From a virus: a DNA stretch of 64,000 bases. This document shows positions 2,543 to 31,608 of this stretch, piece after piece. Position 1 is the first letter of the stretch, and the number at the start of each line of letters is the position of its first letter. The DNA is taken from IMG/VR virus record IMGVR_UViG_3300045988_154248. One strand, written 5' to 3'. The position numbers and the translations under genes were made by a program. The notes beneath the pieces were generated by a model. That model searched no databases. It was not told the DNA's origin and worked only from the letters and a program-made list of their open reading frames with translations.

Positions 2543-5500
2543 ATGGGATTAAATGATGCGTTGACAAAACAAGCATTATCTCTTGCGAATGACGCTGGTT
2601 TATATCAAAAAGCTGCGGCAGGTAATCTTACATTTAGTAAGGCTATAGAATTAAATATAAATAATGCAAGCGATTTAGTTGATGCCTTGATGAGTAGTAA
2701 TTCTGAAGTCTTAAAAAAATATAAAGATAACGATATTGCTGATATGATAGCTAATTCAGGTGAAAAAGGCAGCGCGGCATATAATGAGTTTGTTAAAGAT
2801 CTCATCGATAAAAATCAAGATTTAGGGGACTCAATCGTTGAATTAGCACCCAAAGTAGAAACTACAAAATCCGCATTTTCTGGTTTATCAAACTATTTTA
2901 AAGGACTTTTTGCTACATTTACAAATCCGATTTTCCTTTTAACGACAGCCGTTACCGTAGGGGTTGCGGCATGGCAAGGCTATAACCAATCTGTCCAGGA
3001 ATCCATCCAGCACACGAAAGACTCAATAGCAGAAATAGAGGAACGTAATAAGTCTATTGACGACAATATCAGTAAAGCACAGGAACTAAGGGATTCCCTT
3101 GATTCCGGTACTCTTACAGAGCAAGAAGCTTATAACACGAAGAGTCAATTGCTTGATATCCAAAGTCAATTATCTGATTCTTATGGAGAACAGGCGGATG
3201 GAATTGATCTGGTAAATGGTAAGCTGGATGAGCAGATCGAGAAGATGCAGCAGCTCAAAGTTGAAAATGCGAAAAGCTGGCTGAATGATTCGGATAATGA
3301 GAAGAATTACGAAAAAGCTAAGAAGAAGATGACCAAAGATGATTATGAGTCATTCTTTGGAAATACACCTACTTTATCTTTACTTGGTAATGCACCAGAA
3401 AAAGCCGACTATACAAATTCAGACGTATATAAAGATGCACTGAAACGTTATCAAAATAGCAAATCCCAGATCGAAGAAATCCAGAAAGCAGCAGAAAAAG
3501 CCGGACTAAAACAGTATACAAGTACAAGCACAGGTCAGTTCCAGCTTGGTTTTGAAAATGAAACAGTAACAGGAGCAGATGAAAAATTAAACTCCTTCCT
3601 CGCTACTGTTAAAGAACTGAAACGGCAGTTTGATGATGAGGGTAAAAATACTGATTACTTTGATAATATCATCAGTTCCGCCGAAGATGCCGAATCTTCT
3701 TATAAGGATATTTTAGACAAGCATCAAGAAGTATATCAAGAGTATCTGAAAAACTCCATGCTTGCAGAGGGTTATGGTAATAATAAGCCAGCCACAGTAT
3801 ACCAGCAATATGCGGATGCTGTAGATAAATATAATGAAGCCCTGCAAAGTGGAGATACATCTAAGGTCGAAGCAGCGAAAACTGCATTAGATGGCGTAAA
3901 AGATTCCGTAGATAATATTGTCAGTAGAGATTCCGGAAAAAAATACAAGGAACTGTTTGATGAGATTGCAGATGGTATTGACACAGCATCCGAAAAAACT
4001 TATGAGTTCAAAGAACGCTTATCCGGTAAAGGTACAGATAAATTAAACAATACTGTGCTTTCTAAGCTCAAAGAGTTGAAGAATTACACAGATATTGACC
4101 TCAAGAGTATCAATCTTGATACAAGTGATGTTGTTGCTGGTAAAGATGCTCTACGCATGGCAGTAAACGAAGCAATGGATCTTGACATTGTTTCCGATGA
4201 TTCTGCTGAAAGTGTGGCAAAAGTTGTTGATCTCTTAACGGATATGGGTATGACGGCAACCGTATCCATGAATCAAGTGGATGATTCCTTCTCAGAAGTC
4301 AATACTACCATTCAGCAAGCACAAGCAAATCTGGAAACGCTCAAGACGATTATGTCTGAATCTGTTTCGGGAGCAGGTATTTCTGCCGATAATGTGAAAG
4401 CATTTAAAGAAATGTTCGGAGATGATGCTGCGCGTGCTTTGGAGAAAACCGCAGACGGTTACCATATCAATCGTGAAGAGCTTGCAAAATTACAGGCGCA
4501 ACAGTCAGAAATGAACAAAGCGGATTATCTTTCCGGTTTGGCAGATCAGCAGGAAGCTCTGAGACAAATCGAGGAGCAGATCGCCGATGCAATGGTAAAA
4601 GGTCAAGATGTCAGCGGCTTACAGGCACAGCGCGAAGGTATTTTGGATAATATTTCCTCTCTGGAGGATCTAGCATATCAGTATCAAACTGCTACTTCTG
4701 CTTATCAACAATGGCAGGATGCTATGTCCGGTGGTGAAGAAGGTAATATGTATGATTCCATCCAGGGTAACATGGAATCCATCAAAGATCTCTACGACAA
4801 AGGACTTGTGGGAGAAAACAAATTCCGAGAGTTTGTTGACCTTATGTCCAATAAGGATCTGACCAATGCCAGTGTGGATGAAATCGTTGCGGCTTATGAA
4901 GAATCCTATCCGAAGATGGAACGTTATTTTACAGAAGGACAGGAAGGATGTCAAGCATTCTTACAAGATATATCCAACCTTAATTCTGAATGGGCGCACA
5001 TGAATGAAGATGGTTCATGGGAGATTAATTTCGGAGTCGGAAACGATCAAGAGATTGCGGATGCATTAGGAATTGATGTGGAAGCTGTACAATCAGTACT
5101 AAGAAAACTGCATGATTTTGGCTTTGACATCGACCTCGATCAGCCGGTTAAATCTTTGGAACAACTAAAGACAGAAGCTCAATCAGCCAAAGAAGCTCTT
5201 GATGGAATGGGTGAAACTTCTCTTGATAGCATCAATTTGGACACAGATTCATTCAGTGAAATCACAGATGATATTGACAAGGTTAAGGAATATATTCAGC
5301 AGATCAATGATGCTGATTTGGAGCCAGAAGTTCGGACAGAGAGACTGGAGCAAGCCAATAATATTCTTGATTATCTGGTACAGAAACAGCAAGAGGCTGG
5401 ACATACAGATATTATCATTGATGCGGATGCAAGTTCTGTCGATCAAAAGATCTCTGATCTGAAGAGTCAACTGGAGCAATTCAGAAACGAAGACGGTACG

Positions 5501-8220
5501 ATTCCTGTTAATGCCGATACACAAGATGCTGTCAACAGTCTGCAATCTTTGTATGCTACGAAGCAAAATCTTGAAAATACACCAGCTATTCTACAGGTTG
5601 ATACTTCGCAGGTTGACGGAGAACTGGGCAATGCGATCGGAAAATTACAGGAATATCAGAATGCTGTAGAGATTCTGAATGCACAGAACACGATGAAAAC
5701 ACAGGGCATCGACATTGATACCACAGATGCACAGCAGAAAGTACAACAGTTGGCAGGACAGCTACAGAATCTTGATGCTGATACGACAGCAAAGTTAGGT
5801 CTTGACGATACTGATTTTCAGTCGAAACTTTCTAATATTGCTACTCATCCGATTGATGTAGGAATAGGGGTAAATCTTGATCCGAATGCTCTTGCCGACG
5901 TCTCTGCAAAGATTTCTGGAATTACGCCAGAATTACTTGTAAAAGCTGGTGTAAACGAAGAGGCGATTGTAAATTATACGCCGAAAGATAAGGACGCTAC
6001 GGTCAAATACAAAGTTGACCATAGTGCGATTGACAGTTATGATCCGGAAGACAAAAATGCTACGGTTACTTACGGTGTGGTTGTTTCTGGACTTGAAAAT
6101 CTACCAGGTAATAAAACAAGAAGTCTGACTTACAATATTAAGACTAATGGTACGGCTCCAAAAGTAAATGGTACGGCACATGCTATAGGAACAGCTCATG
6201 CGGCAGGTACTGCAAGCCGTAATTGGGGGCTTGCTCACAATGAACCACATGCGCTTGTAAATGAATTGAAACCAGAAGCAATCGTTCGGGATGGTAAGGC
6301 GTTTATCTTGAATGGCGGAGATCCTACTTTTGCAAATCTGAAGAAAGATGATGTTGTATTCAACGGTGATCAGACGGAGCAGTTGCTTGAACATGGTTAT
6401 GTTACCGGTTCTCATGCACAACTTGCAGGTGGTGGTTATTCTTTAGGTAGTGCGTTCTCTGGAGGATCGGGAAGATTTAATGTTGGAAGTTCTGGAACAA
6501 AAGCTGATTCTTCCACATGGGAAGACGAAAAGAAACAGAATAATACCAGCCCTAACTCATCTTCTGGTAGCAGTAGTCGTAAAAACAGTGGATCATCTTC
6601 TGGTGGTTCAACTCGATCACCTTCCGGTGGAAGTTCTGGTGGCTCTTCATCCTCTTCTGATGCAAAGTCAACAACAGAAGAAGTAGTTGATTTTATCAAA
6701 ATTATGCTCTCCCGTCTGTCCCGTATGACAGAGCTTGCAACTAATGCAATCGAACGTGCAGTAGGTCTTGCAAATAAACAAGCAGCCGCAGCAGATGCAA
6801 TCGGTAAAGCAACGAATGAAATGGTTCATAACCAACGTGCAGCAGATGCTTATTTGGCAAAAGCTAATAGCATTAGTTTGTCTGATGCTTATAAGAACCA
6901 GATCATGAATGGTAGTATTAATATAGATACCATCACAGATGAAGATCTGAAAAAGAAAATTAGTGACTTCCAAAGCTATTATGAATCTTACTTATCTGCA
7001 AGAGACAATGCGTTAAAGCTCGAAGATAAAATTACCGAACTCGCTGAAAAACGTCTGGAAATCATTGAAAAAGAATATGATGCGATCGTAGACATCAACG
7101 ATGCGATAAAAACCGTAGCCGATTCCAAAATTTCTCTCAACGATGCGCTGGGCGTGGCGATTGACAATCCAGACAATTATGCTAATCTGAATAATTCAAT
7201 CAAAGCACAGGAAGATACTTATAATCAGCTGACGAAAAAGCTTTCCGATTATCAGAAAGAGATGGAGTCTCAACTTTCCAGCGGCTTGATGCAAAAGGGT
7301 TCTGATGCCTATAATTCTGCGCTAAAAAATATTCAAGATTTTACAGCTAAGATTTATGATGCTTCTACCAGCCTTCTTGAACTACGGGATAAATTGGATC
7401 AGATTAAAATTGATACTATCCAGAATGTAATTGACGGAATCAAACGTAATTCGGATATTACGGAGAAATATATTTCTTACCTGCAATCTCAGAATCGTGA
7501 TGTGCCAGAGAATCTATACACTGACCGTATAGATAATAATAACGCTCAGGTACAGCAGAATCTAAAGCAGATGGAAATATACCGGAAGAAACAGGCGGTT
7601 CTTGATGTCAATTCTAAATCGTATCAAGATTATGCAGAAAAGATTCAAACGCTAAAAGAAAATACTTTGGAACTGATTACGGACAATGAATCTCTTCAAG
7701 ATAGTATCTATGAGCTACGATTTAAGCCACTTGACGATGCTATCCAGAAGTACAGTGACCTTGAAGATGAGCTGAAAAGTTTCCGTGACCTTCTGAATGA
7801 TGATGCATTCCTTGATAAGCAAGGACGTATCACGGAAGATGGATTGGCACAGATTGCTCTCTTACAACAGAGTATTGGTACGGCAAAACAAAAAATTGCA
7901 GATTATACCACGGGCCTGCAAAAACTAAAAGAGTCTTATGACAATGGGGTTATTTCCTTAACGGAATATAATGACAAGTCAAAAGATTACCGTGAAGGTA
8001 TTCAAGGTTCGATTGCAGATGTGAAATCATATCAGGACAGTCTGGTTGATCTGTATAAGAATGCTATGAGTACAGAGGTTGATTATCTAACCTCTATTGT
8101 AACGAAGAGACAAGAGGCGCTTCAAGCAAAAGCTGACTATTATTCCTATGATAAATCAATATCCAAAAAGAGCAATGATATTAATGTTATTAAAGCACAA
8201 ATCATGGCTTTAGAAGGGGT
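2543..8220 (+). CDS. tail tape measure protein, exon 1; frame is open upstream to 2342
   Basis: Very long coiled-coil-rich ORF with a TM segment (NPIFLLTTAVTVGVAAW), directly upstream of Dit and Tal. The exon ends at U8220, the group I 5' splice site. The track ORF reads 6 codons into the intron. Confidence 0.85.
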
Positions 8221-8561
8221 GAAATATTTGCTCCTATAAAATCTATTTAATTGCGGGAAGTCCCCATAAGGTTTAATTGGCTACAACGTAACCAGAAACG
8301 GTAGGCGTGAATGCGGTAGAGTTTTAAACTTACAGTCCATTATTAGATAGAAACCATAAAAATAATTAAACTAGGGATAACCGAGTGTGCAAGTCACTCA
8401 GACGCAGCGAACTTCCTAAGTCAGAAATGATATGGAAGACGTTCAGAGACTAACCCATATTGGGTGGCGCAATGCCTTAATGGAAGACTGCAAGCGATTG
8501 GCGGTCGAAAAAATATAGACTATTTGAATATTAAGTGATATTATAATTTTGAGGTGTGTTC

Positions 8562-8577
8562 TTTCCTATAATTAGTG
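8562..8577 (+). promoter_or_regulatory. promoter-like element containing TATAAT, copy 1 of a duplicated 16-mer
   Basis: tttcctataattagtg matches 8793-8808 at 15 of 16 positions. Confidence 0.35.
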
Positions 8578-8792
8578 ATGAACAGATAGAACACAGTGTA
8601 GATACAACCAAAGAGACTCTCGAACACACATATGAGAGAAGTAAGTAGAAGAAAAGACAACGAAATAGAACAATAAAGAAGATTGTGCAAGTTTGTAGAA
8701 GTTATACGAACCATCGTTCGCATGTTTGTGAATTTTGCGAATAGATTTTTCTCTTGGGATTGCATATAATAAAGTCAAGAAAACCGTAAAGT

Positions 8793-8808
8793 TTTCTTAT
8801 AATTAGTG
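8793..8808 (+). promoter_or_regulatory. candidate toxI-toxN promoter -10 region (TATAAT 8798-8803), copy 2 of the 16-mer
   Basis: tttcttataattagtg lies immediately 5' of the first antitoxin repeat. Confidence 0.45.
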
Positions 8809-8906
8809 GTTACGAAGCCATAAAATCGTATTAATAGATGTTACGAAGCATGTAAAAAATCGTATTAATAGATGTTACGAAGCATGTAAAAAATCGTATT
8901 AATAGC
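8809..8906 (+). ncRNA. toxI: type III antitoxin RNA array (ToxI/antiQ-like), about 2.9 tandem repeats
   Basis: Head-to-tail units at 8809-8839 (31 nt), 8840-8873 (34 nt) and 8874-8906 (33 nt) have the form gttacgaagcatgtaaaaaatcgtattaatagat. There are no spacers. A terminator and then toxN follow. Confidence 0.8.
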
Positions 8907-8930
8907 GGAGCTGGTTACAGCTCCTTTATT
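8907..8930 (+). terminator. intrinsic terminator between the antitoxin repeats and the toxin gene
   Basis: Hairpin ggagctg-gtta-cagctcc followed by tttatt. This is the position of the attenuating terminator in ToxIN loci. Confidence 0.7.
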
Positions 8931-8946
8931 ACTATTAGGAGAAAAT

Positions 8947-9507
8947 ATGAAGTGGATTAATGTAGACGAAAAGTATACAGATTATCTTAGAAGTCACGAA
9001 GGAAGAATTCCTATGACCAATTATGGCACAGATAAATACAAGCCATTTTTCGGTGTGCTGTTTGAAACAAATGGTTTGTATTATATTACACAGGTATCAC
9101 ATCCACGGGAAAAACATAAACGCTTGACACAACAAAAAGATTTTTACAAAATATTTGATCCAGATAATACAACAAGATTAATAGCGGTTGTTAATCTTAA
9201 TTACATGTTCCCAATTCCAAAAGAATGTACAAGTGCATTTGTTAAAAAGAATATAGGAACATATCGTACATTTAAATCAGAGAAAGCAAAAAGTCAATAT
9301 ATTAATTTGCTTGATAAAGAATTAAAAGTAATCAATAAAATGGATTTAGGAACAAAAGCATTGCAGTTGTATCATTTAAAATATACAGATCCTAACAGTA
9401 CCGTTTCAAAAAGATGTATTGATTTTAAGGATATGGAAAAATGGGCAAAGTTATATATTGAAACGTTAAATAATACAGAAACTACAGAACAACCCAAGGA
9501 GCAGTAA
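8947..9507 (+). CDS. toxN: type III toxin, ToxN/AbiQ-family endoribonuclease
   Basis: 186 aa, with SD AGGAG before ATG 8947. Recalled ToxN/AbiQ blocks match: MKWINVDEKYTDYLRSHEGRIP, KPFFGVLFETNGLYYITQVSHP, IAVVNLNYMFPIP. Size and repeat-terminator-toxin context also fit. Confidence 0.85.
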   Translation: MKWINVDEKYTDYLRSHEGRIPMTNYGTDKYKPFFGVLFETNGLYYITQVSHPREKHKRLTQQKDFYKIFDPDNTTRLIAVVNLNYMFPIPKECTSAFVKKNIGTYRTFKSEKAKSQYINLLDKELKVINKMDLGTKALQLYHLKYTDPNSTVSKRCIDFKDMEKWAKLYIETLNNTETTEQPKEQ

Positions 9508-9525
9508 ATCTACTGCTCTTTTCTT
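9499..9525 (+). terminator. intrinsic terminator overlapping the toxN stop
   Basis: Stem gagcagta/tactgctc, loop aatc, then ttttctt. Confidence 0.7.
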
Positions 9526-9650
9526 ATACCTCAAATCTTAATTACAATCCCTCAAATAAAATTCAAATAGAAGATATAGTCCCATGCCATACGAAAGTAT
9601 GGGGAGCAGTTATGCTCTTGTCCACGTAGCGAGTGGATGAAAAGAAAATG

Positions 9651-11142
9651 AAATAACCTCGATGCTCAATCTCAAGTTAAGAAATTGAAGCAACAGCTTT
9701 CAGAAGCAGAGCAAGATTTAGCCGATACTAAGCGTGACCATGCAAATGATATGCAGTCTCAAGGTTACGATAAGCTCAGTGAAGATCTGAAAACTTCTCT
9801 TGATGATACCGAGTACGAAATTAGTCATAATGCTGACAAACAGCTTGAGATCATCAATTCTATGCTTGACAAAGCCGTGTCCTCTTATCAAGAAGCATAT
9901 GGCAAAATCAACTCTATCATCAAAAATACTGGCTGGGTAGGTAGTACGGATTTTAACAATACCCAGTCTGATCTAAGCACAGAGACAGGTGTTAAGAATC
10001 AAAATTCCAACGCATCACAGTCTCAGTCCAGTGCAAATAAAAATCCATCCAGTACCGCATCTGGTACAAAAACTGATCCAATCAACAGTAATTCAAAAGC
10101 AAACAGTGATCTTGCGGATCAATTAGTTAAACCGGAAGATACAACGAATCGTAAGGTTGCGGAACTAAAGGTGTCTCCTACTTCTACTACACTGAAAGAG
10201 GGTAAATCCACAAGTATTACTGCTACAATCAGACCGAACGATGCAGCTAATAAGACTCTTGCTTGGAAATCAAGTAATGAATCCATTGCTACTGTATCCA
10301 ATGGTACGGTAAAAGCAAAGAAAGCAGGTTCCTGCACGATCACTGCTACTACTACTGACGGCAGCGGTTTATCTGCGAAAGTATCTGTTAAAGTCAATGC
10401 GAAACCAAAACCACCAAAGCCACAGCCGAAACCACAACCAGCAAAAACTGGTGGAGATGGAATTCCTCGTGTTGGCGATGTCGTAACGTTCACAGGATCT
10501 TATTATAATGATTCCTGGGGTATGGCTCCAAAAGGTAGTAGATTTTCCGGTCAGCCTGGTGCTGTTGTTATTGACTCTTACACGGCTAGGGAATATGGCG
10601 GAAATGGACGTACTACTGGTGATTTTAAGATCCATATCAAGAGTGCGCATGATCCTAATTATAGTGATCTTGGATGGGTGCGTCTTAGCCAGATTAGTGG
10701 TTATGAAAAGGGTACGGATCGTATTCATGGTGATCAGCTTGTATGGACAAATGAAAATAAAGACACCAAACATCATGGCGTTTCAGAATTAATCTATCGC
10801 AAGAAAGATGGTGCTGTCCTTACACCTGTTCAAGATGGAGATTCTATTCTACCAGCAGATTTTGTAAGTAATTTGATTAAATTAAGTGCAATTGATCCTA
10901 AAGAATTCGGTATGAATGTAAGTACTACGCCAAATCTGGTACAGACGAACATTCCTCAAAATATCAGCAATGTTGGAAATGTAACGGTAAAAAATCATTA
11001 TGATTCATTACTCACAGTTGAAGGTAATGTTGATAGGGATGCTCTGCCTGGATTACAGGAAATTCTTGAAAAGTCTTATCAGTATACAAGTAAACAGATC
11101 GTGAAAGATGCAAGAAAAGTTGGTATTAGACCATCAAGATGA
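9651..11142 (+). CDS. tail tape measure protein, exon 2
   Basis: The frame is open from 9652. Joining gt (8219-8220) to a (9651) gives GTA and continues ...ALEGV/NNLDAQSQVKKLKQQL. Exon 2 contains an Ig-like (Big_2-type) segment and a KPKPPKPQPKPQP linker. The two exons total 7170 nt, divisible by 3. Confidence 0.85.
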
Positions 11143-12308: not shown

Positions 12309-15300
12309 GTGAATATAATTTTTAATCGTTATAATGAGCCGATCCAGGGACATGTATATTTAGGAACACCAAATGGTAAAATTCTATGTGCTATTAATGG
12401 AATTGAAGAGAGTACGTTTAAGCTCACGTCAAAATTTAATAATACATTTGAATTGACGTTTGACTTGAATGAAAATATTCTTATTCAAGATGGAAAAGGT
12501 CTTTCTAAATTAGTTCATTCCAATGTATATGATCTTGTTGGATGGCTTATGCGTGTTTATGTCGAAAATGTTGGTTGGTTCATCATGGAACATCCGAAAA
12601 TTACTGACGATGGTATGAAGCAAATCAAAACAATCACATGTCAATCCGCAGAAATCGAGATGCAACAACACGATCTCAAGAATTTTAAAATCAACCAGGG
12701 AACAACAGATTCCTACGAGATGTTAGCAGATAATAATGTGGAGAAAATAGATGATGTAGAATTTGCTAAAGAACAAATCAAATTTCACAATCCTCAAAAT
12801 CCGCAACTTAGTTTGATTGATTTAGCCCTAAAAGCCGCTGGCATGAAAGGCTGGTCTGTTGGGGAAATTGATTCAACCCCAAAAACATATCGGACATATA
12901 AAGATGGAAAATATGTCGAAACTACTACTCTTCTATCTAACGAAATTGGTGCGTTTGATGTTGAGAGTCAGGACTTGTATTCTTTCTTTACACAAGATAT
13001 GGCTAAATATTTTCAGTGTGTATTTGTATTCGACTTTTTGCATATGAAAATAAGTGCTTATCATCCTGAGAATTATGGCAAGAGTACAAACGTAAATATT
13101 AATTTTCGAAACCTGCAACAATCTCAAGAAATAACAGTTGATGATAGCACTTTATTTACACGATATTATGTACAAGGTGCAGATGATCTTGGCATTACTT
13201 ATGTCAATTTTGGTTCAAATTATATTGAAAATATTGATTATTACTTAAACGAAAAATACTTCTCTCCTCTTTTAATTATTAAATATAAACTGTGGAAAGA
13301 AGACTATGAAGAAGCTCGTATATTATATATAGAAGCAACTCGTCAATATAATGAACAAATGAAAGTCGTAACAGAGCTATATGATCGCGTTCCATTGGAT
13401 GATTGTTCTACGGATTGGAGTACTTTTACAGATGATGAATTGAAAGAAGCTCAGGCTAATTACCAGGCACAACTTAAAGGATATGAACAATTTTACGTTG
13501 ATGACGATGGAAATTTCGATGAGAATGCATTAAAAAATTCTTCTGATGCTAATGACTATTATCAGATTAAAAATGTTATTCTTCCATCCATTCAGATTGA
13601 AATGGATAATCGTCAACTACCAACAGATGATGATAATGCCGATTATGTGGATTCTTACAAAACAAATTGGAAATTATATGGTTTGGATGAATTGAAAGTC
13701 AAATTGCAAGAATATAAAAACACTATCGAAACTTGTAAAAAAGGCGGATATGATCAACCATATACAGAGGATTCATCTCATACTAAAGATGTTCACGACA
13801 CAATGTACGCAAAATATCTTGATGCTCAAAACCAATTAGATTCAAATTATGTTGGAGGATGTCAAGAGGCATATGATCAGCGACAATCTGAAATTGATGC
13901 AGCAAACGAGATATTAAATAGTTATAACAAAACTCGTACAGATCTAGTAAAACAGATTTCAAAGGAAACCTGGAGTGGTGTTGTTGCTGCTGATAATTCG
14001 GGATATATTCTCGATGAGGCGGGGAATTATATAACGGATGAAGCCGGTAGAAGAATATATTGCGACACACAAAAGTTACAATTTACAGAGCGTGATCTTA
14101 CCGAGTTGTCAAAAGTGTATTATGACGGAGATTACTCAAATGAGAATATGTTTTTAACAGATTCAGACGACCAAGTATCTGCTATTGATGAGCAACTTAA
14201 GCTTCTAGATGCTGCTATTGACGATTTGTACATAGCATCTCATCCCCAATATCAGTTTACCACATCTCTTGATAATTTCTTAGCCTTGGCTGATTACGAA
14301 GATTATATAAAAAATATAAATCAGGGTGACTATCTATGGTTGACCGTAGATAATAAGGTAGTAAAACTTCGTGTAGTTGAAATACAATATAATCCGCTTA
14401 TAGCAGATAATAGTATTCAAATAACATTTTCTAATATGATACAAGGACGTAGTAGTAGAAATGACTTATCATACGTTCTAAACACACCATCAAATGCAAG
14501 TAAATCTTCCGCATCTGGTTCATCTAATAATTTCTTAAACAATGAAGGGATCACTCTTACAGCAGGCCTCATTCAAAAACTCATTTCCAATGGCGCATTT
14601 AAAAATGGCGTTTCTCAAATAATCAATAATGAATTTGCTGGTATGTTGGCTGGCGGTTCTATTTCGCTAGAAGAACTTAATGCAAAAATCATTAAAGTAA
14701 CCGATTTGTACGGTAAAAATGGATATTTCGAATACCTACAAGCAAAACTTATTACAGCAGGAAGAGTCGTTGCCGACAGTGCTGATTTTAAAGAATTATC
14801 TGCTCTTGCTGCTACCATCAAATCTGCTATCATTGGTGCTTCATCCACGGAGACAGGTATCGTAATTAATCTTACAACTGAAAATGCCACGATGAGCGAA
14901 GCGATGATCAAGGATCTTATTGCCAAATATATCACCGTTAATGAACTTAAAGCTGGCGACATCTATACAAATAAAATCAAGATTTTATCTGAAAATGGTA
15001 CGCTCAGAATTCAAGATAATACGTTCTCAATCTATGATGAAGATGGTAATGTAGTAGTTCAGCTTGGAGAAGATAAAAACGGAAATTACGGATTAATCAT
15101 ATCAGATTCCAAAGGATCTGTCTTGTTAGATTCACAAGGGCTGCACGAGGGTATTGTTCCTGATGATTTCATTAAAACGGATATGATTGCAGATGGTCAA
15201 ATTACAGAATCTAAGATTGACAAGACCACCATGCGTGACTGGACTATGCCTGACGGATCTAAAGTGTTTGATGTATCACATCTTTGGGACGGCGATGATA

Positions 15301-18125
15301 GTTTCGGAAAATCTTATAACACGATCAAATCAACCGTATCTGCGACATCTAAAGAACTTGGAGATTTATCGGACAAAGTAGATCAATTAGGAAATGGTTA
15401 TACTGTTGTTTTATCTAACGAAACCCAAAATATCCCATGTACATCTGACGGAATAACTGCGACTAGTTTTCTTATCGAAATTCCATTCTATGGTTATGAG
15501 GGAATTAAACAGGCAGTATGTACCGTGACTGTTGGTGAATTACCAGATGGAATTACTCTCGCGGAAAATACTGCTGCTACTTCTACTGCACCAGGTAAAA
15601 TCACCTTGAATGTAGCAAAAGGTAAAACACTTGGTAACAAATCTCTTCTAACAGGAACGATTGTTTTTACATGTATCGTTTCAGGAAAGAAAATTTCTAA
15701 AAAATTCACATGGATTAAATCTCTCGCTGGTAAAGATGGATCGCAAGGTATTCCAGCGCCTACATACTATACGTGGATTCGTTATGCAGATACTCCGACC
15801 AGTGGAATATCATCTGATCCAACCAATAAAACATATATTGGTATTGCGTATAATCAGACTTCTCAAACACCTAGTTCAAACTATTCTGATTATCAATGGT
15901 CAAAATTTCGCGGAGATGACGGTGCAAGTATAAAAGGCGATGACGGAAAAACGCTATATGTATGGATTAAATATGCAGATGACGCAAAAGGTACAAATAT
16001 GTCAGATGCTCCCGAAGGTAAAACTTACATGGGTATGGCATGGAATAAATCCACATCAAAAGAGAGTACTAATGCTGCGGATTATTCCTGGTCACTAATT
16101 AAAGGCGCAGACGGTAAAGATGGAAAAACCCCAGTAAAAGGCGTTGACTATTTCGATGGCGTGTCTTCCTATGTATGGATTAGATATGCAACGGACGCTA
16201 AAGGAACTGGGATGACAGCTATTCCATCCACAACAACGGGCTATATCGGAACAGCTACTACTACAACAGCTGTTGCTCCAACAAATGCTAGTGCGTATGT
16301 GTGGGCTAAATATATTGGAGAAAAAGGCGCTAAAGGTGATGGTGGTTATATTCATATTGCTTATGCTAACTCTGCTGATGGAAAGACAGGATTCGATACG
16401 ACAATCGGTACTGGGAAATCTTATATTGGACAGTATACGGATAACATCGAAGATGATAGCACGAATCCAAGCAAATATACATGGAGTTTGATCAAAGGTG
16501 CTGACGGAAAGACATTATATACATGGCTAAAATATGCTGACTCTCCTACTTCTGGTATGTCAGACAGTCCGGCTGGAAAGACGTACATGGGTATTGCTGT
16601 TAATAAAACATCTATAACTGAAAGCAGTAACTATTCTGATTATACTTGGTCGCTGATCAAAGGTACAGATGGAATTAGTGTTAAGGGCGATAAAGGTGAT
16701 ACGGTATATATCTGGGTTAAATATGCAGATGACGCAAAAGGTAATGGCATGTCTGAATATCCAGATGGCAAAAAATATATTGGTCTTGCCTATAACAAAA
16801 CCACCGCAACAGAAAGTAATAATGCTTCTGATTACATCTGGTCGTTAATTCAGGGTGAAGATGCTGTTCTTTATGAAATCGAACCATCTGTTGCAGTAAT
16901 CAAAAAATGCACTCTTGATGTATGTTCTATTACTGACGAATCTGGAAATCGAATTGTTGATGAACAAGGAAGATTTCTCTCTGCTTATTTCTTGACTGAT
17001 TCTCTTTCACCGAACAAAATCACATTTACGGCCTATAAACAAGTCGGAAGTAAAACTCGTGCCATATATGCATGTAGATTTATTATCCAGGAATCTTTAA
17101 ATGGATTATCTTGGTCAACAAAATACACGTCTTCCGAAGACGAAACGAGTGTGTCATACACTCCAAGCACCCTTAAATTACAACAAATTAAGTGTGTAAT
17201 GTATCGTGCTGGCGGCATAACTGAACAGTTAGATTCTCAGACTGTGCCTGTTATTCAAGATGCTGAAGGCTATGATTCTGTGATTCAGACATTTACGGAT
17301 ACTTTTGCATCTGTTGAGTTAAAAGTTGATAACAATACAAAAGCTATTACATTAAAAGCAGAGCAAAAAGATATAACTAATGCTATTAATAATTATGATA
17401 ACACAACAGTTAAGGACATTCGCAATCGCCAAACAGAACAAAAAGTCAATATCGACGGTATTTCAACAAAAGTATCTGATATTGAAACAACTATTAATGG
17501 ATCTGTCGATGGCACAAAAACAGGTCTTATAGAAAAGGTTACGCAAGTAACAACCAAGGCCGGAACAATTGAAGCTAATCTCAAAAATAATTATACCACA
17601 ACTGCAGGTATGAATACACAGATCAGCAACTCAATTGCTGCTAGTGCAGATAAGATTAAGGTCACTCTTGCTGATGGAAAGACGGAATCTACTCTCAAAG
17701 CCGCTTTAGGAGAAATTCAGAAGAGTGTAAAAGATAATGCAGGAAATATTTCAACAGTCACCCAAAAGGCTAATAGCATTGAAACTAAGGTTGCAAACCA
17801 AGGAAATGACATTGCGAATCTTAAAGTTGATGCAAAAGCCGTCGAGACGTTGGTTGGAAGTTCTGCTGGTACAACTGATGTTGTTCAAAAAGCAACAGAT
17901 TTTCGAAAGACGATTACAGATGCTGCCGGAAATGCAAATCTTGCTCTTAGCACCGCGAATTCAAATAAAAATATTATTTCAAACATGAAAGTTGGAGCTG
18001 CAAATACAATTCGCAATTCCAATGATCTTATTTACGATTTATATTTTATGGTTGCCAGTCTACGTGACGAAAGTGGTAATCGCATAGTAGCTGAAAATGG
18101 CGATTATTTAGTTGCATATTATTAA
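12309..18125 (+). CDS. tail-associated (Tal-like) minor structural / fibre protein, 1938 aa
   Basis: GTG start 3 nt after the Dit stop. It has a Tal-type N-terminus, a long coiled-coil region and six repeated WxKYAD modules separated by collagen-like G-x-x stretches. Confidence 0.8.
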   Translation: MNIIFNRYNEPIQGHVYLGTPNGKILCAINGIEESTFKLTSKFNNTFELTFDLNENILIQDGKGLSKLVHSNVYDLVGWLMRVYVENVGWFIMEHPKITDDGMKQIKTITCQSAEIEMQQHDLKNFKINQGTTDSYEMLADNNVEKIDDVEFAKEQIKFHNPQNPQLSLIDLALKAAGMKGWSVGEIDSTPKTYRTYKDGKYVETTTLLSNEIGAFDVESQDLYSFFTQDMAKYFQCVFVFDFLHMKISAYHPENYGKSTNVNINFRNLQQSQEITVDDSTLFTRYYVQGADDLGITYVNFGSNYIENIDYYLNEKYFSPLLIIKYKLWKEDYEEARILYIEATRQYNEQMKVVTELYDRVPLDDCSTDWSTFTDDELKEAQANYQAQLKGYEQFYVDDDGNFDENALKNSSDANDYYQIKNVILPSIQIEMDNRQLPTDDDNADYVDSYKTNWKLYGLDELKVKLQEYKNTIETCKKGGYDQPYTEDSSHTKDVHDTMYAKYLDAQNQLDSNYVGGCQEAYDQRQSEIDAANEILNSYNKTRTDLVKQISKETWSGVVAADNSGYILDEAGNYITDEAGRRIYCDTQKLQFTERDLTELSKVYYDGDYSNENMFLTDSDDQVSAIDEQLKLLDAAIDDLYIASHPQYQFTTSLDNFLALADYEDYIKNINQGDYLWLTVDNKVVKLRVVEIQYNPLIADNSIQITFSNMIQGRSSRNDLSYVLNTPSNASKSSASGSSNNFLNNEGITLTAGLIQKLISNGAFKNGVSQIINNEFAGMLAGGSISLEELNAKIIKVTDLYGKNGYFEYLQAKLITAGRVVADSADFKELSALAATIKSAIIGASSTETGIVINLTTENATMSEAMIKDLIAKYITVNELKAGDIYTNKIKILSENGTLRIQDNTFSIYDEDGNVVVQLGEDKNGNYGLIISDSKGSVLLDSQGLHEGIVPDDFIKTDMIADGQITESKIDKTTMRDWTMPDGSKVFDVSHLWDGDDSFGKSYNTIKSTVSATSKELGDLSDKVDQLGNGYTVVLSNETQNIPCTSDGITATSFLIEIPFYGYEGIKQAVCTVTVGELPDGITLAENTAATSTAPGKITLNVAKGKTLGNKSLLTGTIVFTCIVSGKKISKKFTWIKSLAGKDGSQGIPAPTYYTWIRYADTPTSGISSDPTNKTYIGIAYNQTSQTPSSNYSDYQWSKFRGDDGASIKGDDGKTLYVWIKYADDAKGTNMSDAPEGKTYMGMAWNKSTSKESTNAADYSWSLIKGADGKDGKTPVKGVDYFDGVSSYVWIRYATDAKGTGMTAIPSTTTGYIGTATTTTAVAPTNASAYVWAKYIGEKGAKGDGGYIHIAYANSADGKTGFDTTIGTGKSYIGQYTDNIEDDSTNPSKYTWSLIKGADGKTLYTWLKYADSPTSGMSDSPAGKTYMGIAVNKTSITESSNYSDYTWSLIKGTDGISVKGDKGDTVYIWVKYADDAKGNGMSEYPDGKKYIGLAYNKTTATESNNASDYIWSLIQGEDAVLYEIEPSVAVIKKCTLDVCSITDESGNRIVDEQGRFLSAYFLTDSLSPNKITFTAYKQVGSKTRAIYACRFIIQESLNGLSWSTKYTSSEDETSVSYTPSTLKLQQIKCVMYRAGGITEQLDSQTVPVIQDAEGYDSVIQTFTDTFASVELKVDNNTKAITLKAEQKDITNAINNYDNTTVKDIRNRQTEQKVNIDGISTKVSDIETTINGSVDGTKTGLIEKVTQVTTKAGTIEANLKNNYTTTAGMNTQISNSIAASADKIKVTLADGKTESTLKAALGEIQKSVKDNAGNISTVTQKANSIETKVANQGNDIANLKVDAKAVETLVGSSAGTTDVVQKATDFRKTITDAAGNANLALSTANSNKNIISNMKVGAANTIRNSNDLIYDLYFMVASLRDESGNRIVAENGDYLVAYY
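15750..16865 (+). repeat. six tandem 55-70-aa protein modules inside Tal
   Basis: The pattern (Y/V)xW(I/L)(K/R)YA(D)...GM(S)..P.GK.Y(I/M)G.A.N...ES.N..DY.WS(L)IKG.DG recurs six times in the translation. Confidence 0.6.
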
Positions 18126-18130
18126 TTTTA

Positions 18131-18162
18131 TTACTCCTCATTGATTTGAGGAGTAACTTTTA
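18131..18162 (+). terminator. intrinsic terminator after Tal
   Basis: ttactcctc-attgattt-gaggagtaa followed by cttttat. Confidence 0.6.
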
Positions 18163-18180
18163 TAAGGAGGTAATACACTT

Positions 18181-18666
18181 ATGGCAAGTGATAAAATGTT
18201 AGGTAGTTTTGATCAAAAATCTGCACCAGAAGATAATGATCTTTTGGTAGAATACGATGCTGCTGCATCGAAAGTTAAGAATGTGAAGTTCGGAGGTGTG
18301 TGGAACTGGATAGTTAAGAAATTGACATCCGCCGTAATTAATGAGTTACAAACATCAAGTAAGAATGTAGTGGGGGCTATTAATGAATTAAATAGTAAGA
18401 AAGCGATTTGCACCACTGGTTGGGAAAACGGTAATGCAAAATCTATTTTTGAAATATTTTCGCCAACTTCTCCAAATGGTATTTATAGTTATTATAATAT
18501 TAAAGATATTCCATTTTATCATTCTCCTACAGATGCCTATGTAACAATAATAAAAGGACATGAGTTAATTATTGCTTTTAATGAACAGAGTATTTTTATA
18601 ACAGGAAGTTCAAGAAATACATGGACAAAGGAATGGCATTCTATCAAGCTTGGTATCCTATCTTAA
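18181..18666 (+). CDS. shufflon expression locus: tail-fibre tip protein (constant residues 1-73 plus currently fused cassette A, 88 aa)
   Basis: This is the only ORF in the locus with AGGAGG plus ATG. Site F1 is in frame as L-N-S-K at codons 70-73. The stop TAA 18664-18666 lies inside site F2. The cassette ends ...RNTWTKEWHSIKLGILS. Confidence 0.8.
   Translation: MASDKMLGSFDQKSAPEDNDLLVEYDAAASKVKNVKFGGVWNWIVKKLTSAVINELQTSSKNVVGAINELNSKKAICTTGWENGNAKSIFEIFSPTSPNGIYSYYNIKDIPFYHSPTDAYVTIIKGHELIIAFNEQSIFITGSSRNTWTKEWHSIKLGILS
18388..18399 (+). repeat. shufflon crossover site F1 (TTAAATAGTAAG), forward orientation
   Basis: Exact 12-mer, in frame as Leu-Asn-Ser-Lys in the expressed gene. Confidence 0.8.
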
Positions 18667-18674
18667 ATAGTAAG
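18663..18674 (+). repeat. shufflon crossover site F2 (TTAAATAGTAAG), forward orientation
   Basis: Exact 12-mer. It supplies the stop of cassette A in one frame and the NSK entry of cassette B in another. Confidence 0.8.
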
Positions 18675-19397
18675 ACATTATTACATAATGCAGGTGGTCA
18701 TAACTCTATCTTCAGAGGTAAGAACTTAGGTACATCTTACACATCTGCGATGTCTAAGGCTATTCAGGCGGGTACATTTGATGACCTGTATGTAGGTGAT
18801 TACCTTACAATCAACGGTACTGTATATCGAATCGCTGGATTCAATCTTGGAAAACAGATTGGAGGCAACGCATCTATGGGTAACTGCATGTGCCTCGTTC
18901 CTGACTCTGCTCTGTATAGCGCACAGATGCACAATACGGATAGTGGTCAGTATACAGAAGGTTCTGCTGCAAATACAACAACCGGTGCATATGCAAATTC
19001 TGATATGAGAACCACCAACCTTGCACAGGCAACTCAGAAGATTGTGAACGACTTCGGTTCTACTCATGTAATGTCTTACAGAGATATCCTGCCGAACGCA
19101 ACCGCTAACGGACAGGCTTCTGGATGGGCTTGGTATGACTGTAAAGTTGAACTGATGTCTGAGGTTATGGTGTACGGAACAACTGTATGGGCTAATAGCG
19201 GATATGAAGTTGGATGTATCAACTCTCAGCTCCCACTGTTCGCTCTCGCTCCTGAATATATTCACCGTCGCTTCGTCTATTGGCTCCGTGGTGTTGGGAG
19301 TGCGACTTCCTTCGCTTCTGTGAGCAACGCCGGTTATGCGACCAACACCAACGCTTCTTTTTCTTATGGTGTTCGTCCGTTTTTCTTCGTTAATTAA
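18675..19397 (+). CDS. silent forward cassette B (240 aa), start-less C-terminal module
   Basis: It reads NSK/TLLHNAGGHNSIF...YWLRGVGSATSFASVSNAGYATNTNASFSYGVRPFFFVN from site F2. There is no SD before the in-frame ATGs at 18621 and 18633. The YWLR...GVRP C-terminal pattern differs from the small cassettes. Confidence 0.65.
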   Translation, partial: TLLHNAGGHNSIFRGKNLGTSYTSAMSKAIQAGTFDDLYVGDYLTINGTVYRIAGFNLGKQIGGNASMGNCMCLVPDSALYSAQMHNTDSGQYTEGSAANTTTGAYANSDMRTTNLAQATQKIVNDFGSTHVMSYRDILPNATANGQASGWAWYDCKVELMSEVMVYGTTVWANSGYEVGCINSQLPLFALAPEYIHRRFVYWLRGVGSATSFASVSNAGYATNTNASFSYGVRPFFFVN

Positions 19398-19536
19398 GAT
19401 TTTTACGTGCATAGAAACGGGAATAATAGCTATTGACTGCGGATTTAATTGGTTTATATTTTTCAAGTATTTGATGAGAGAATATGGGAATGTGGTAATA
19501 GAAATTGCCAAAATTTCCCAAGGAGGTAGGTTAATA

Positions 19537-20535
19537 TTGACAAAATTAGAAAATATTCTCGAGCAAATACTTGAAAAATTACAGGATAGCTTAACGCATG
19601 AACAGCTTTCGGAATTAGAAAGCACTATGGTTATTGCATTCCACGGAATCGAGGTACAAGAAGAACACACTCAGTTAGTAACATCAGAGCGTACATGGGA
19701 GAAGATTCTTCGGATGTATTGTGCCGCAAAGCGTGTTGAAAATTGCTCCGAAAGAACTATTAAAGGTTACAGTCGATGCATTATTCAGTTTTTCACGCAG
19801 ATCAACAAGAAAATAAATAACATAACTACGAATGATATTAGATATTATTTGGCATTTTTTCAAGAAACGCATCATACTTCTATTGTATATCTTGATAACA
19901 TACGTAGGTATCTTAATTCATTTTTTACATGGGCTGCGGATGAAGGATATATACAATCAAATCCTATGCGAAAACTCAAGAAAATGAGAGTACCTACTAA
20001 ACTTAAAAAAACATTTTCAGCAGCAGAGATGGAAGAACTTCGTTGCAGTGCAAACTCTCAGAGAGATATTGCAATTATGGAATTTTTATATTGTACTGCT
20101 ACTCGTATTGGAGAGGCAGTTAGCGTTAATCGCTCGGATATTGATTGGCAAAGAAAAGAATTAATTGTTTATGGAGAAAAGGGCAAGAAAGAACGTACTG
20201 TTTATTTGACAGATCGCTGCATTTATCATCTTAAAAAATATCTTGATGAAAGAAAAGATACAAATGAAGCTTTATTTGTATCCTCAAAATCTCCACATAA
20301 GCGACTTGGAGTTCAGGCAATTCAGTCTATGTTGGCAGCGTTAGGTAAAAAGACAAATATTCACGTACATGCTCATAAATTTCGAAGGACGTTACTTACG
20401 GATGCAGGAAAACGTGGTATGCCATTACAAGAGATTCAGGTCTATGCAGGACACGCCAAGCCAGATACAACGATGCAATATGTAATGGTTCAACAAGAAC
20501 GTGTTAAATCGAATTTTATGAAAAATATTGCATAA
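19537..20535 (+). CDS. tyrosine site-specific recombinase (XerC/D / phage-integrase family), candidate shufflon invertase
   Basis: TTG start 19537 lies 10 nt after AGGAGG. Catalytic contexts are ATRIGEA (Arg), HAHKFRRT (His-x-x-Arg) and AGHAKPDTTMQY (His...Tyr). The gene sits between the forward and inverted sites. Confidence 0.85.
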   Translation: MTKLENILEQILEKLQDSLTHEQLSELESTMVIAFHGIEVQEEHTQLVTSERTWEKILRMYCAAKRVENCSERTIKGYSRCIIQFFTQINKKINNITTNDIRYYLAFFQETHHTSIVYLDNIRRYLNSFFTWAADEGYIQSNPMRKLKKMRVPTKLKKTFSAAEMEELRCSANSQRDIAIMEFLYCTATRIGEAVSVNRSDIDWQRKELIVYGEKGKKERTVYLTDRCIYHLKKYLDERKDTNEALFVSSKSPHKRLGVQAIQSMLAALGKKTNIHVHAHKFRRTLLTDAGKRGMPLQEIQVYAGHAKPDTTMQYVMVQQERVKSNFMKNIA

Positions 20536-30123: not shown

Positions 30124-31608
30124 TTACGCTTTTTTATTATTTTTCTGTATTTTTAGATACGTTTCAGGATATCTGTATTGTAGTATATTCATGGCTTTTA
30201 TCATATTTTTTTCTATTACGTGTACCATACCCTTTAATTCGCTATATGAAATATAATCGCTGTCAATTTGATCGACAATATATTTTATTTTATCGACCCA
30301 ATAATCCTCTATTGGTTTTTCTTTTGTTTTAATATACTTATAGCATTGTGGCATATAATAAAAATCATTTCTTCTGATGTCTTGACAAATTTGTTGCATG
30401 AAAGCATTAAATCCTCCTACAGTTAATCTTCTAACTTTGTCAGAATTCTTAAAATATAAGTCAATATAATATTCAATTTTAGGATAATACTTTTTATCTA
30501 ATTCAGAATACCTCTTTCCTTTAGGCGGTATATTCCTACTGCTACTATGTGCATAATTTTGGCTTATTATTTTTTGTTTTTCAACTTCATATTGACCGTT
30601 AATTATTTTACTTACATTACAAGGTAAAATATGATATTGTTTTGCAAGCTTGTTTATGCCGTTATCTTTTGTATACTCTGATCGAATTCTTTCGACTAAT
30701 TCCGAATCAATTTGTTTCGCCGTTTTGCATACAAAAATATCAGATATTTGTATATCTAAAAATAATAATATATGAATTGTTCTAAGTGGATTCGCTTTAT
30801 TTGAAAATATATCTTGCATTTTCTTAATCTGAGAATTCTTTTCTATACTATTCTCTAACAAGTATTGTTCAAAATCATTAATAAATGCTGACTTATGTTG
30901 TAGCCACGAAAGTTGATTTATATACCGTTTTTGAATTAATTTTTTATAGAATACATCAAACATCGTAATACCGTTTTTAAGACTCTGTTTTCTTACTACT
31001 AATTGATATAGGTATTTTGCGGTATTTATTTCACCGATGGTTCCCATATTATACGAATAATCATCATCAATACAATTTTCAGCTGCATGAAAATTAATTA
31101 TTCTTGAATTATTAACATTAATTGACGAATCTTTAAGTTTACATCCGTGAATTACACAAACATTAATTTCTGGAATTTGATGAAAAGCATTCCAATATGT
31201 TTCGTGATATTGCTCTCTATTTTCTTTTGCACATAATGGACAATATTTTAGAAATATTTTTTGATGTTTATGTTTTGGTCTTAATGGAAGATATTCTGTA
31301 AAACTCTTGTCATTTGATATGAACTTTCTCAACGCATCTTCTTTGTTTGATTTGTTTAAAAATAAAGACCAATAGAAAAACATAGTGTGATTATAATATA
31401 AATCATTAACTATATAATTTTTCGACATAAAGGAATACAATGTGTCACTCGGTTCATTCACATAAAATATTTCGATGTATTCATGCGGTTGTTTAAACAC
31501 GATTTCTTTAAAAGATTGATTATTCTGTACATTTATATCTTGTTTCAATCTTGAATACACGCTATAGAATAATTCATGTTCATATATTTTTGGAAAGTAA
31601 TTTATCAT
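30124..31608 (-). CDS. tniQ: TniQ/TnsD-family target-selection protein
   Basis: N-terminus FPKIYEHELFYSVYSRL is the TniQ signature. A zinc motif CPLCAKEN...CVIHGCKL is present. The start overlaps tnsC by 4 nt. Confidence 0.7.
   Translation of the reverse strand: MINYFPKIYEHELFYSVYSRLKQDINVQNNQSFKEIVFKQPHEYIEIFYVNEPSDTLYSFMSKNYIVNDLYYNHTMFFYWSLFLNKSNKEDALRKFISNDKSFTEYLPLRPKHKHQKIFLKYCPLCAKENREQYHETYWNAFHQIPEINVCVIHGCKLKDSSINVNNSRIINFHAAENCIDDDYSYNMGTIGEINTAKYLYQLVVRKQSLKNGITMFDVFYKKLIQKRYINQLSWLQHKSAFINDFEQYLLENSIEKNSQIKKMQDIFSNKANPLRTIHILLFLDIQISDIFVCKTAKQIDSELVERIRSEYTKDNGINKLAKQYHILPCNVSKIINGQYEVEKQKIISQNYAHSSSRNIPPKGKRYSELDKKYYPKIEYYIDLYFKNSDKVRRLTVGGFNAFMQQICQDIRRNDFYYMPQCYKYIKTKEKPIEDYWVDKIKYIVDQIDSDYISYSELKGMVHVIEKNMIKAMNILQYRYPETYLKIQKNNKKA

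Follow-up and report, generated by a model that had tools for sequence, protein, structure and literature searches.

A probable ToxIN-family toxin-antitoxin module in the P8 loop of a predicted group I intron within a phage tape-measure gene

The IMG/VR virus record IMGVR_UViG_3300045988_154248 carries, between two long open reading frames (ORFs) for tail proteins, a small operon that resembles a toxin-antitoxin (TA) system of type III, with an array of RNA repeats (ToxI) followed by an endoribonuclease gene (toxN). We analyzed a stretch of 64,000 nt of this record, hereafter called the window, and asked whether this locus is an ordinary intergenic TA operon or the cargo of an intron, and what such a cargo would do for the phage. 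A first-pass annotation, made from the sequence alone, had proposed an intron in an essential phage structural gene. Our analysis makes it quite probable that an intact type III TA module of the ToxIN family lies in the terminal loop of the P8 helix of a group I intron, which interrupts the tape-measure gene of the phage. The coordinates of all features are collected in Table 1.

Without splicing, a 1898-aa ORF ends at position 8239, and a second frame is open from 9652. Joining the exons at 8220/9651 yields 2389 aa without an internal stop, and the junction reads ...IMALEG-V-NNLDAQ.... The five uninterrupted homologues that were aligned (P0121, P0122, P0159, P0162 and P0179) are gap-free across the ...ALEGVNN... 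junction. The genes downstream encode the phage tail domains DUF6558 and Big_2. The 1898-aa ORF and the frame from 9652 are predicted to be two parts of one tape-measure-type gene; introns within tape-measure genes are already known as such. The 5′ splice site pair in P1, as read from the sequence, is U8220-G8230, the P10 helix pairs UAUUU (8225-8229) with AAAUA (9651-9655) at the start of exon 2, and the last base of the intron is G9650. Related introns occupy a second site of the tape-measure gene, site B, after ...DYQxW (L010, L027 and L029; L-numbers denote related loci or contigs). The guides of these introns differ, and each fits its own exon, with the P1 pairs CTTGGT/GCTAAG, AGTGGT/GCCACT and GTGGT/GCCAC and the P10 pair TGAAA/TTTCA. 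The five homologues aligned across the junction are only 685-736 aa long and start in the middle of the tape-measure sequence; their genes are probably interrupted elsewhere, perhaps at site B.

The catalytic core shows P7.1/P7.2 between P7 and P3′, an arrangement typical of subgroup IA phage introns. For a covariation test, the cargo was replaced by GAAA, four diverged introns were aligned, and P1 to P9.1 were drawn by hand with P7 as a pseudoknot. Over the 96 pairs of this core, 94% of the cells are paired, compared with 32-38% when the partner strand is slid, and 33 pairs are changed on both sides, a number that none of 500 shuffles reached. RNAalifold recovered the local helices from the cargo-deleted alignment but mis-paired P1, P3, P4 and P7, and therefore these four were drawn by hand and tested by counting. 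The two arms of P8, already annotated as a perfect 10-bp helix, are exact reverse complements, and four pairs are compensatory in the relative L027 (CTATCTGTTA/TAACAGATAG); the P8 arms of A-type relatives are CTGTTTATT/AATAAACAG. A 10-bp inverted repeat is by itself not significant in 1.4 kb of AT-rich DNA, and the P8 call carries weight because of its position, directly after P3′ (8515-8519) and directly before J8/7-P7′. The J8/7-P7′ segment lies at 9571-9581 (AAGATATAGTC); its reading AAGAUAUAGUC agrees with the Rfam consensus.

Rfam returned no intron match on the intact region or on the whole window. This silence is explained by the 1-kb insert in P8, since RF00028 does match each half when searched by itself, with 19.4 bits (E 0.0076) on the 5′ side and 25.8 bits (E 3.2e-5) on the 3′ side. 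The related intron of Serratia phage Yaphecito, whose P8 is short, scores 58.8 bits, above the Rfam threshold. The P5-extension motif of the window intron, GGCTACAACGTAACC.GAAACGGTA.GCGTGAATGC, is common to Yaphecito and Staphylococcus phage PALS_2. The Yaphecito element (L002:2412-2721) is an unannotated group I intron splitting RpoBC, and the PALS_2 match (L001:2501-2578), which takes in the 3′-terminal part of PALS2_248 together with the gap that precedes PALS2_247, is likely an intron as well.

Were there no intron, the locus would be an ordinary intergenic TA operon between two separate tail genes. Gene callers indeed give two ORFs of 1963 and 482 aa with ToxN between them, and the silence of Rfam on the intact sequence would fit. 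Against this stand the gap-free homologues over the junction, the covariation of P1/P10 and of the core, and the Rfam half-matches, and in relatives the same flanks surround endonuclease ORFs. We give this alternative next to no credence. The element at 8221-9650 is thus supported as a group I intron whose splicing is predicted from its sequence, and the first-pass proposal of an intron in an essential structural gene is borne out by the junction, by P1 and P10 helices that are adapted to a second site, by the core covariation and by the Rfam half-matches.

The toxN ORF is the only plus-strand ORF of at least 40 aa within 8221-9650. No intron-encoded DNA endonuclease (LAGLIDADG, GIY-YIG, HNH, His-Cys box or PD-(D/E)XK) was found among plus-strand ORFs of this size in the intron, in agreement with the earlier observation that a homing-endonuclease ORF is missing there. 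In the profile search that the first-pass annotation had suggested, the ORF matched Pfam PF13958 (ToxN_toxin) over the full profile (positions 1-159 of 159, E 5.8e-43), and it also matched the PADLOC model AbiQ (5.5e-21). Sequence matches in the PDB are 4ATO (the best, E 3.5e-8), 2XD0 and 7D8O. An AlphaFold model of the protein has a predicted local distance difference test score (pLDDT) of 87, and its four best PDB matches in Foldseek, 2XD0, 4ATO, 7D8O and 4GLK, are the ToxN proteins of Pectobacterium, Bacillus thuringiensis and E. coli plus AbiQ, with template modeling (TM) scores of 0.70-0.81. K32 and S51 are invariant among 20 homologues and align with K33 and T52 of Pectobacterium ToxN, H52 aligns with S53, and R54 with K55. 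These profile and model matches predict that the toxN product is an endoribonuclease of the ToxN/AbiQ family.

The antitoxin array precedes the toxin gene. Tandem Repeats Finder reports 8809-8905 with a period of 34 nt and 2.9 copies, the same unit length and copy number as first annotated, and 8822-8905 match at 100%. For 80 ToxN homologues in IMG/VR and GTDB genomes, we surveyed the 260 nt on the upstream side for repeats. About 70 of the 80 loci carry a 33-35-nt array of 2-3.4 copies (6.1 in one case) that lies 35-80 nt before the ATG. The consensus of the ToxI unit across these loci is GGTTACGAAGCCTACCAAAATCGTATTAATAGA, and the window unit fits it. Over 37 units, helix B (4 bp, ACGA with UCGU) is 100% paired with changes on both sides at all four pairs, and helix A, a hairpin that encloses the 5′ strand of helix B, is 91% paired, compared with 12-57% in slid controls. 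Because both helices are paired and covary over the 37 units, the ToxI unit is a conserved pseudoknotted RNA. Within one array (L027, L059), units carry different yet complementary helix sequences.

The order of elements in the P8 loop (8530-9560) is TATAAT, 5′ hairpin, three ToxI units, terminator 1, ribosome-binding site (RBS), toxN and terminator 2. This is the order of characterised ToxIN systems, and the repeat numbers agree as well, so that the module has the canonical type III layout that had been assigned to it. Two TATAAT copies are present. The first (8765-8770) is preceded by TTTTCTC, and both are kept in ToxIN loci, whether in introns or on chromosomes, as well as in cassettes without ToxN, whereas the copy beside the repeats (8798-8803), tried as the promoter, is not conserved in L010, L041 and L029. 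The TATAAT noted earlier in the loop therefore stands for the first copy but not for the second, and by conservation the functional −10 element is more likely the upstream one. The 5′ hairpin is likewise kept in intron-borne and chromosomal loci and has compensatory variants in L014 (GAAATC/GATTTC) and L100. Terminators on both sides of the toxin ORF, as first annotated, were found as hairpins with U-rich tails. Terminator 1 consists of a stem at 8907-8924 followed by TTTATTACTA (−13.7 kcal/mol, z −4.0), and its hairpin is conserved in L010, L041 and L059. Terminator 2 consists of a stem at 9496-9521 followed by UUUUCUUAU (−14.2 kcal/mol, z −5.2) and is the stronger of the two. It is common to cassettes with different payloads, and homology with L141, L100, L010 and L029 resumes there. 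The leader (8530-8764) also contains a promoter-like site at 8516-8544 and a small hairpin at 8707-8720. Two minus-strand ORFs of the leader (74 and 68 aa) were rejected as genes; one has stops in relatives, and in the other, which is not under purifying selection, protein-level change outpaces change in the DNA.

Table 1. Features of the intron, its cargo and the interrupted gene (window coordinates)
Feature	Position	Strand	Details
Tape-measure gene exon 1	2543-8220	+	ends after GT of a Val codon; from the ORF listing
P1	8216-8234	+	exon GGGGT (8216-8220) with guide GCUCC (8230-8234)
Group I intron (predicted)	8221-9650	+	1430 nt; subgroup IA-like; P7.1/P7.2 between P7 and P3′
5′ catalytic core	8242-8519	+	per-helix covariation counts; RNAalifold recovers local helices
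P3	8242-8246 with 8515-8519	+	P3′ is ATAGA
P4	8252-8257	+	part of 5′ core
P5 with extension	8262-8376	+	part of 5′ core
P6	8408-8441	+	part of 5′ core
P7 5′ strand GACUA	8448-8452	+	part of 5′ core
P7.1/P7.2	8453-8506	+	part of 5′ core
P8 5′ arm	8520-8529	+	CTATTTGAAT; perfect 10-bp complement of 9561-9570 (ATTCAAATAG)
P8-loop cargo leader	8530-8764	+	about 90-94% identity with other-payload contigs L141, L155, L188
Conserved TATAAT, likely −10 of the cassette promoter	8765-8770	+	conserved in relatives
5′ hairpin of the cassette transcript	8777-8798	+	8 bp; −6.2 kcal/mol, z −4.4
ToxI antitoxin array	8804-8902	+	three units: 8804-8834, 8835-8868, 8869-8902 (register of the RNA fold)
Terminator 1	8907-8934	+	between antitoxin and toxin; interrupted U tract; terminator scan
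toxN	8947-9507	+	186 aa; RBS AGGAG at 8937-8941; Pfam ToxN match
Terminator 2	9496-9529	+	11-bp stem with stop codon, then U tract
3′ core	9561-9650	+	Rfam 25.8 bits on model positions 206-253; covariation counts
P8 3′ arm	9561-9570	+	ATTCAAATAG
P7′ UAGUC	9577-9581	+	after J8/7
P9 with GAAA loop	9587-9602	+	3′ core
P9.1	9621-9637	+	3′ core
Tape-measure gene exon 2	9651-11142	+	first base completes the Val codon; frame analysis, homologue alignment, Big_2 domain

Is the cargo functional, or is it a chromosomal ToxIN that was captured by accident in a tolerant loop and is now decaying or silent? P8 loops do tolerate large insertions, and this cargo has near relatives on bacterial chromosomes. 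However, the ratio of nonsynonymous to synonymous substitution rates (dN/dS) between intron-borne toxN copies is 0.07-0.33, without frameshifts, and the sequences thus point to purifying selection on toxN. Likewise, four diverged phage lineages have kept the repeats, the RBS and the two terminators. A ToxN protein identical to that of the window occurs in 270 blocks of the metagenome collection, and it lay between the same two tape-measure ORFs in all 6 places that were fetched. An inert passenger is accordingly very improbable.

The core pattern and the exact P8 arm retrieved dozens of IMG/VR contigs, and the survey of homologous introns for their cargo, which had been proposed earlier, turned up multiple different payloads in P8. 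According to blastx, residue 1893/1894 of the tape-measure protein is the insertion point of nearly all of the retrieved introns; the alleles concerned share 32-97% identity with that of the window. ToxN is the cargo in L108 (the L029 contig) and L131 (the L027 contig), and a PBECR4 nuclease in 12 loci. Other relatives carry PemK/MazF toxins, an NYN nuclease (PADLOC HEC-09, 7e-18), a small ORF with a GNAT acetyltransferase, DUF3990, or proteins of 172 and 167 aa without a family. A homing endonuclease would be expected in this loop, as was pointed out in the first-pass annotation, and introns at the same codon do carry ORFs of 427-499 aa with zinc fingers in P8 (L204, L180, L208 and L005). From their C-terminal FDFYLP...IE(Y/F/L)DG...H motif they can be read as putative homing endonucleases of the PD-(D/E)XK/Vsr type, with weak library support (PADLOC HEAT_CxxC_PD-DEXK, 0.0017).

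Contigs whose exons are 90-99% identical to those of the window differ by payload alone. Compared with L141 and L155, homology extends up to 8803 and resumes at 9497, and the swapped piece consists of the repeats, terminator 1 and toxN. Homology with L100 resumes at 9488, and with L201 it extends up to 8532 and resumes at 9518. With the stop codon lying inside terminator 2, every one of the unrelated payload proteins has the same ending, ...EQ*. What is exchanged as payload is thus the stretch that begins with the first repeat and closes with toxN, between a common promoter/leader and terminator 2. The cassettes of L141 and L100 consist of the promoter, the 5′ hairpin, 130-200 nt of noncoding sequence, a terminator, an RBS and a toxin gene. 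We looked for tandem repeats before the non-ToxN cargos and found none. The noncoding, terminator-ended segments at L100:1640-1860 and L141:9810-9950, which precede the PBECR4 and 172-aa ORFs in the position of ToxI, are candidate RNA antitoxins of a non-repeat type.

In a neighbor-joining tree (without support values), the intron-borne ToxNs fall in three separate places. A single capture of ToxIN into the intron was rejected on this ground, and exchange or repeated capture is therefore more likely. For the L027 module as a whole, with its repeats and terminator, the nearest relative is a chromosomal ToxIN that stands alone in a Eubacterium genome (L059), and the majority of ToxN homologues have no surrounding intron.

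Several unusual arrangements were seen among these loci. L005:7703-10704, L117, L126 and L148 contain tandem hybrid introns. Their first part is an A-type intron that has a zinc-finger/PD-(D/E)XK-like ORF of 499 aa in P8 and its own P7′ and P9; then come AAAAAATAACTGC and, starting at P3′, the remainder of a window-type intron, whose toxin cassette is ToxIN in L005 and a PemK-like ORF of 132 aa in L148. These hybrids have a duplication of AAATAAC, the first 7 nt of exon 2. Both L014:3100-3600 and L041:3150-3650 contain, some 400 nt upstream of ToxIN, an element that looks group-I-like, with the succession 5′ ...T/GAATATGCCC, TGCTGGGAA, CTACAACG...CGTGAATG and GAGTC...GACTC; the L014 copy comes immediately after a PhageMin_Tail tape-measure ORF. 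Rfam gave no match to the element, and no intron 3′ core follows toxN in these loci; it could be a degenerate intron or represent a different cargo position. In the IMG/VR contigs L020 and L022, a stand-alone ToxIN has the skipping-rope RNA RF02924 (64.5 bits; L020:2257-2340) about 1.7 kb upstream.

How would the cassette work? By analogy with characterised ToxIN and AbiQ systems, host RNA polymerase would transcribe it from its own promoter, and terminator 1 would stop most transcripts, leaving antitoxin RNA in excess over toxin. The precursor would be cut by ToxN, with the invariant A tract as the probable site, and the resulting units of about 34 nt would each fold as a pseudoknot, bind ToxN and block it. 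When transcription is shut off or RNA turnover is altered, for example by infection with another phage, the labile RNA would be lost and the freed ToxN would degrade RNA and arrest the cell. The intron may serve the cassette as a safe harbor; the essential gene would tolerate it because splicing removes the whole 1-kb cassette from the tape-measure mRNA. Since the pre-mRNA and the excised intron both carry the ToxI array, late transcription should raise the antitoxin level during the carrier's own cycle, and the extra ToxI from late read-through transcripts and excised introns may spare the carrier phage its own toxin.

Near-identical phages hold different toxins at one slot, which argues for a role in conflict with phages or host defenses and not for housekeeping. 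The most likely role is conflict between phages, that is, exclusion of or competition with other phages. In a broader proposal, which we regard as evenly balanced, the P8 loop is a dedicated expression slot in an essential gene in which gut phages swap cassettes for RNase-type and translation-type toxins, a hotspot of conflict genes built on a ribozyme. The conserved intron halves would serve as recombination arms in payload swapping.

The same data bear on two other roles. The ToxI array could be an anti-defense decoy that soaks up the toxins of host ToxIN systems, with toxN kept only as the processing enzyme; this role is compatible with a TA module in the intron. Pectobacterium phage phiTE reportedly escapes abortive infection by a decoy of that kind. 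The ToxI unit is very similar over about 70 loci, including chromosomal ToxIN of Lachnospiraceae and relatives, and cross-neutralization is therefore conceivable; moreover, late in infection the repeats would be present in both the tape-measure pre-mRNA and the excised intron. On the other hand, toxN is intact and under purifying selection in all intron lineages, and the slots of sister phages hold toxins without a tandem-repeat RNA (PBECR4, PemK, NYN and DUF3990), so that a toxin-centered function fits and an antitoxin-centered one does not. The title of PDB entry 4ATO further indicates that ToxI-ToxN pairs are selective. A decoy role is possible, if on the unlikely side.

Alternatively, the module could act by addiction, with a toxin that outlives the antitoxin RNA penalizing the loss of the intron or of the phage genome and so retaining an intron without an endonuclease. 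ToxIN of B. thuringiensis is reported to promote plasmid retention (PMC4615649). Among the matches listed, the site is occupied by some version of the intron in close tape-measure relatives, with the matches of at least 85% identity covering one exon only. Yet toxin and antitoxin act in trans in one cell and cannot tell apart co-replicating genomes with and without the intron, and a homing endonuclease directed at the empty site cannot attack one that already holds the intron. The payload is also readily replaced between phages, which disfavors strong addiction. We therefore consider addiction improbable.

Returning to the preferred reading of an intact ToxIN cargo in a spliced intron that serves in phage conflict, several points weigh against it. 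As for the intron, the silence of Rfam on the intact sequence is joined by half-scores that are both below the gathering score of 50 bits. In the cassette, a simple promoter scan made no call at the conserved TATAAT, and no good −35 element is visible. Only part of the active site of Pectobacterium ToxN aligns cleanly with the toxin, and Y29 falls in a gap. The essential late gene contains two terminators on its own strand, and without read-through these should lower the expression of exon 2 and of the downstream tail genes. Finally, the window carries replication genes (PolIII alpha, NrdD and a ligase), and its tyrosine recombinase may serve another purpose than integration. Because these genes are present and the role of the recombinase is ambiguous, protection of a lysogen by the module is uncertain.

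The module can be compared with known TA systems. Repeat numbers for ToxI of Pectobacterium (36 nt, 5.5 copies) and for antiQ (35 nt, 2.8 copies), which the first-pass annotation had given, agree with a review, in which ToxI of B. thuringiensis is listed with 34 nt and 2.9 copies (PMC5086642). The last numbers are identical to those of the window. The ToxIN systems of B. thuringiensis pAW63 (4ATO) and Pectobacterium atrosepticum (2XD0) have, like the window module with its likely promoter, the order promoter, repeats, terminator and toxN, and their toxins share the fold of the window ToxN (TM 0.72-0.81). In contrast, the window ToxN is only about 20% identical to these and other structures (19-23% over the Foldseek alignments), the repeat sequence differs, and the two systems are stand-alone plasmid loci, whereas the window module lies in the P8 loop of an intron within a structural gene and has its promoter/leader and terminator 2 in common with unrelated payloads. 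AbiQ/antiQ of Lactococcus lactis (4GLK) is likewise a type III abortive-infection endoribonuclease system (Foldseek TM 0.70-0.78), but its locus is on a bacterial plasmid, outside any intron. Closer relatives are the chromosomal ToxIN loci of Lachnospiraceae and related Bacillota (for example L039 and L059), with ToxN proteins that are 52-73% identical, the same 33-35-nt ToxI unit and the same architecture of promoter/5′ hairpin and terminator 1; unlike the window module, they are stand-alone and intergenic, with no intron core around them.

The intron also has its precedents. Phage group I introns with a homing endonuclease in a peripheral loop include T4 td/I-TevI and those of SPO1, Twort and Bacillus phage 0305phi8-36. 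Like these and the endonuclease-bearing relatives L204, L180 and L208, the window intron is of the IA type, interrupts an essential phage gene and holds its ORF in a peripheral loop. Its cargo differs in being an operon of an RNA antitoxin and an RNase toxin, with a likely promoter of its own, two terminators and no obvious mobility function. Phages and satellites such as P2/P4 possess hotspots of exchangeable defense genes, and the P8 slot resembles them in its conserved flanks around rapidly exchanged conflict genes in near-identical genomes. However, it lies inside a ribozyme loop within a coding gene, and its payloads so far are all RNase-type or translation-type toxins. The IStron of Clostridioides difficile, a group I intron fused to an insertion sequence (IS) element, is a precedent for a bacterial group I intron with cargo other than a homing endonuclease, but its cargo is a transposase for its own mobility and lies at the 3′ end, while the window carries a TA operon in P8.

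Megablast of window positions 1-25000 against the GenBank phages gave no match, and therefore the phage has no sequenced isolate relative in this collection; a distant search against the same phages found only a shared intron motif of 40-80 nt. The window also encodes an endolysin, a tyrosine recombinase, PolIII alpha, NrdD and a ligase. The tyrosine recombinase gene (19336-20535) follows a 1938-aa tail-fiber-like ORF (region 12309-20535). In sister contigs, the short ORFs between the two differ (159-313 aa), and the recombinase gene is inverted in L004; the region may serve host-range switching by inversion rather than integration. On the minus strand at 30124-34540, genes for TniQ and an rve/Mu-transposase-C protein adjoin the endolysin gene and resemble a Tn7- or Mu-like transposition module; the same phage-like genome encodes NrdD, a NAD-dependent ligase and PolIII alpha.

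What, then, is new at this locus? The TA part is an ordinary member of the ToxIN family, and the intron part is an ordinary IA-type phage intron. What is not ordinary is their combination, an intron with an exchangeable cargo that is not a homing endonuclease and has a likely promoter and terminators of its own, and new is that the same intron at the same tape-measure codon carries a varied P8 cargo across many gut-phage contigs. We searched the literature for group I introns with ToxN, type III TA, AbiQ, abortive infection, toxin or cargo, and found no description of the arrangement in the open-access papers, which is not proof of novelty. Standard annotation is blind to it, as the tape-measure gene is called as two ORFs and the intron escapes Rfam.

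The usual view of group I introns in bacteria and phages is that they either carry a homing endonuclease or are ribozymes without cargo. The intron described here, which is widespread in gut phages, contains TA and toxin genes, and these are swapped between near-identical phages. This is a new location for phage conflict genes, within a coding gene where splicing is predicted to make them harmless, and it suggests a route by which defense-type cassettes move, with the conserved halves of a ribozyme as recombination arms. It also raises questions of RNA biology: how the terminators are bypassed in a late gene, whether the excised intron is a source of antitoxin, and whether the toxin cuts the intron that carries it. 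If the proposed slot is real, intron and cargo would interact as RNA, with late pre-mRNA and excised intron supplying antitoxin, and cleavage by ToxN in L8 would leave a ribozyme in two pieces that P8 keeps joined. The cassettes without ToxN offer candidates for new RNA-antitoxin systems, and under the same condition their repeat-less order of noncoding RNA, terminator and toxin, with PBECR4 in L100 and the 172-aa protein in L141, would represent new systems of a type III-like kind.

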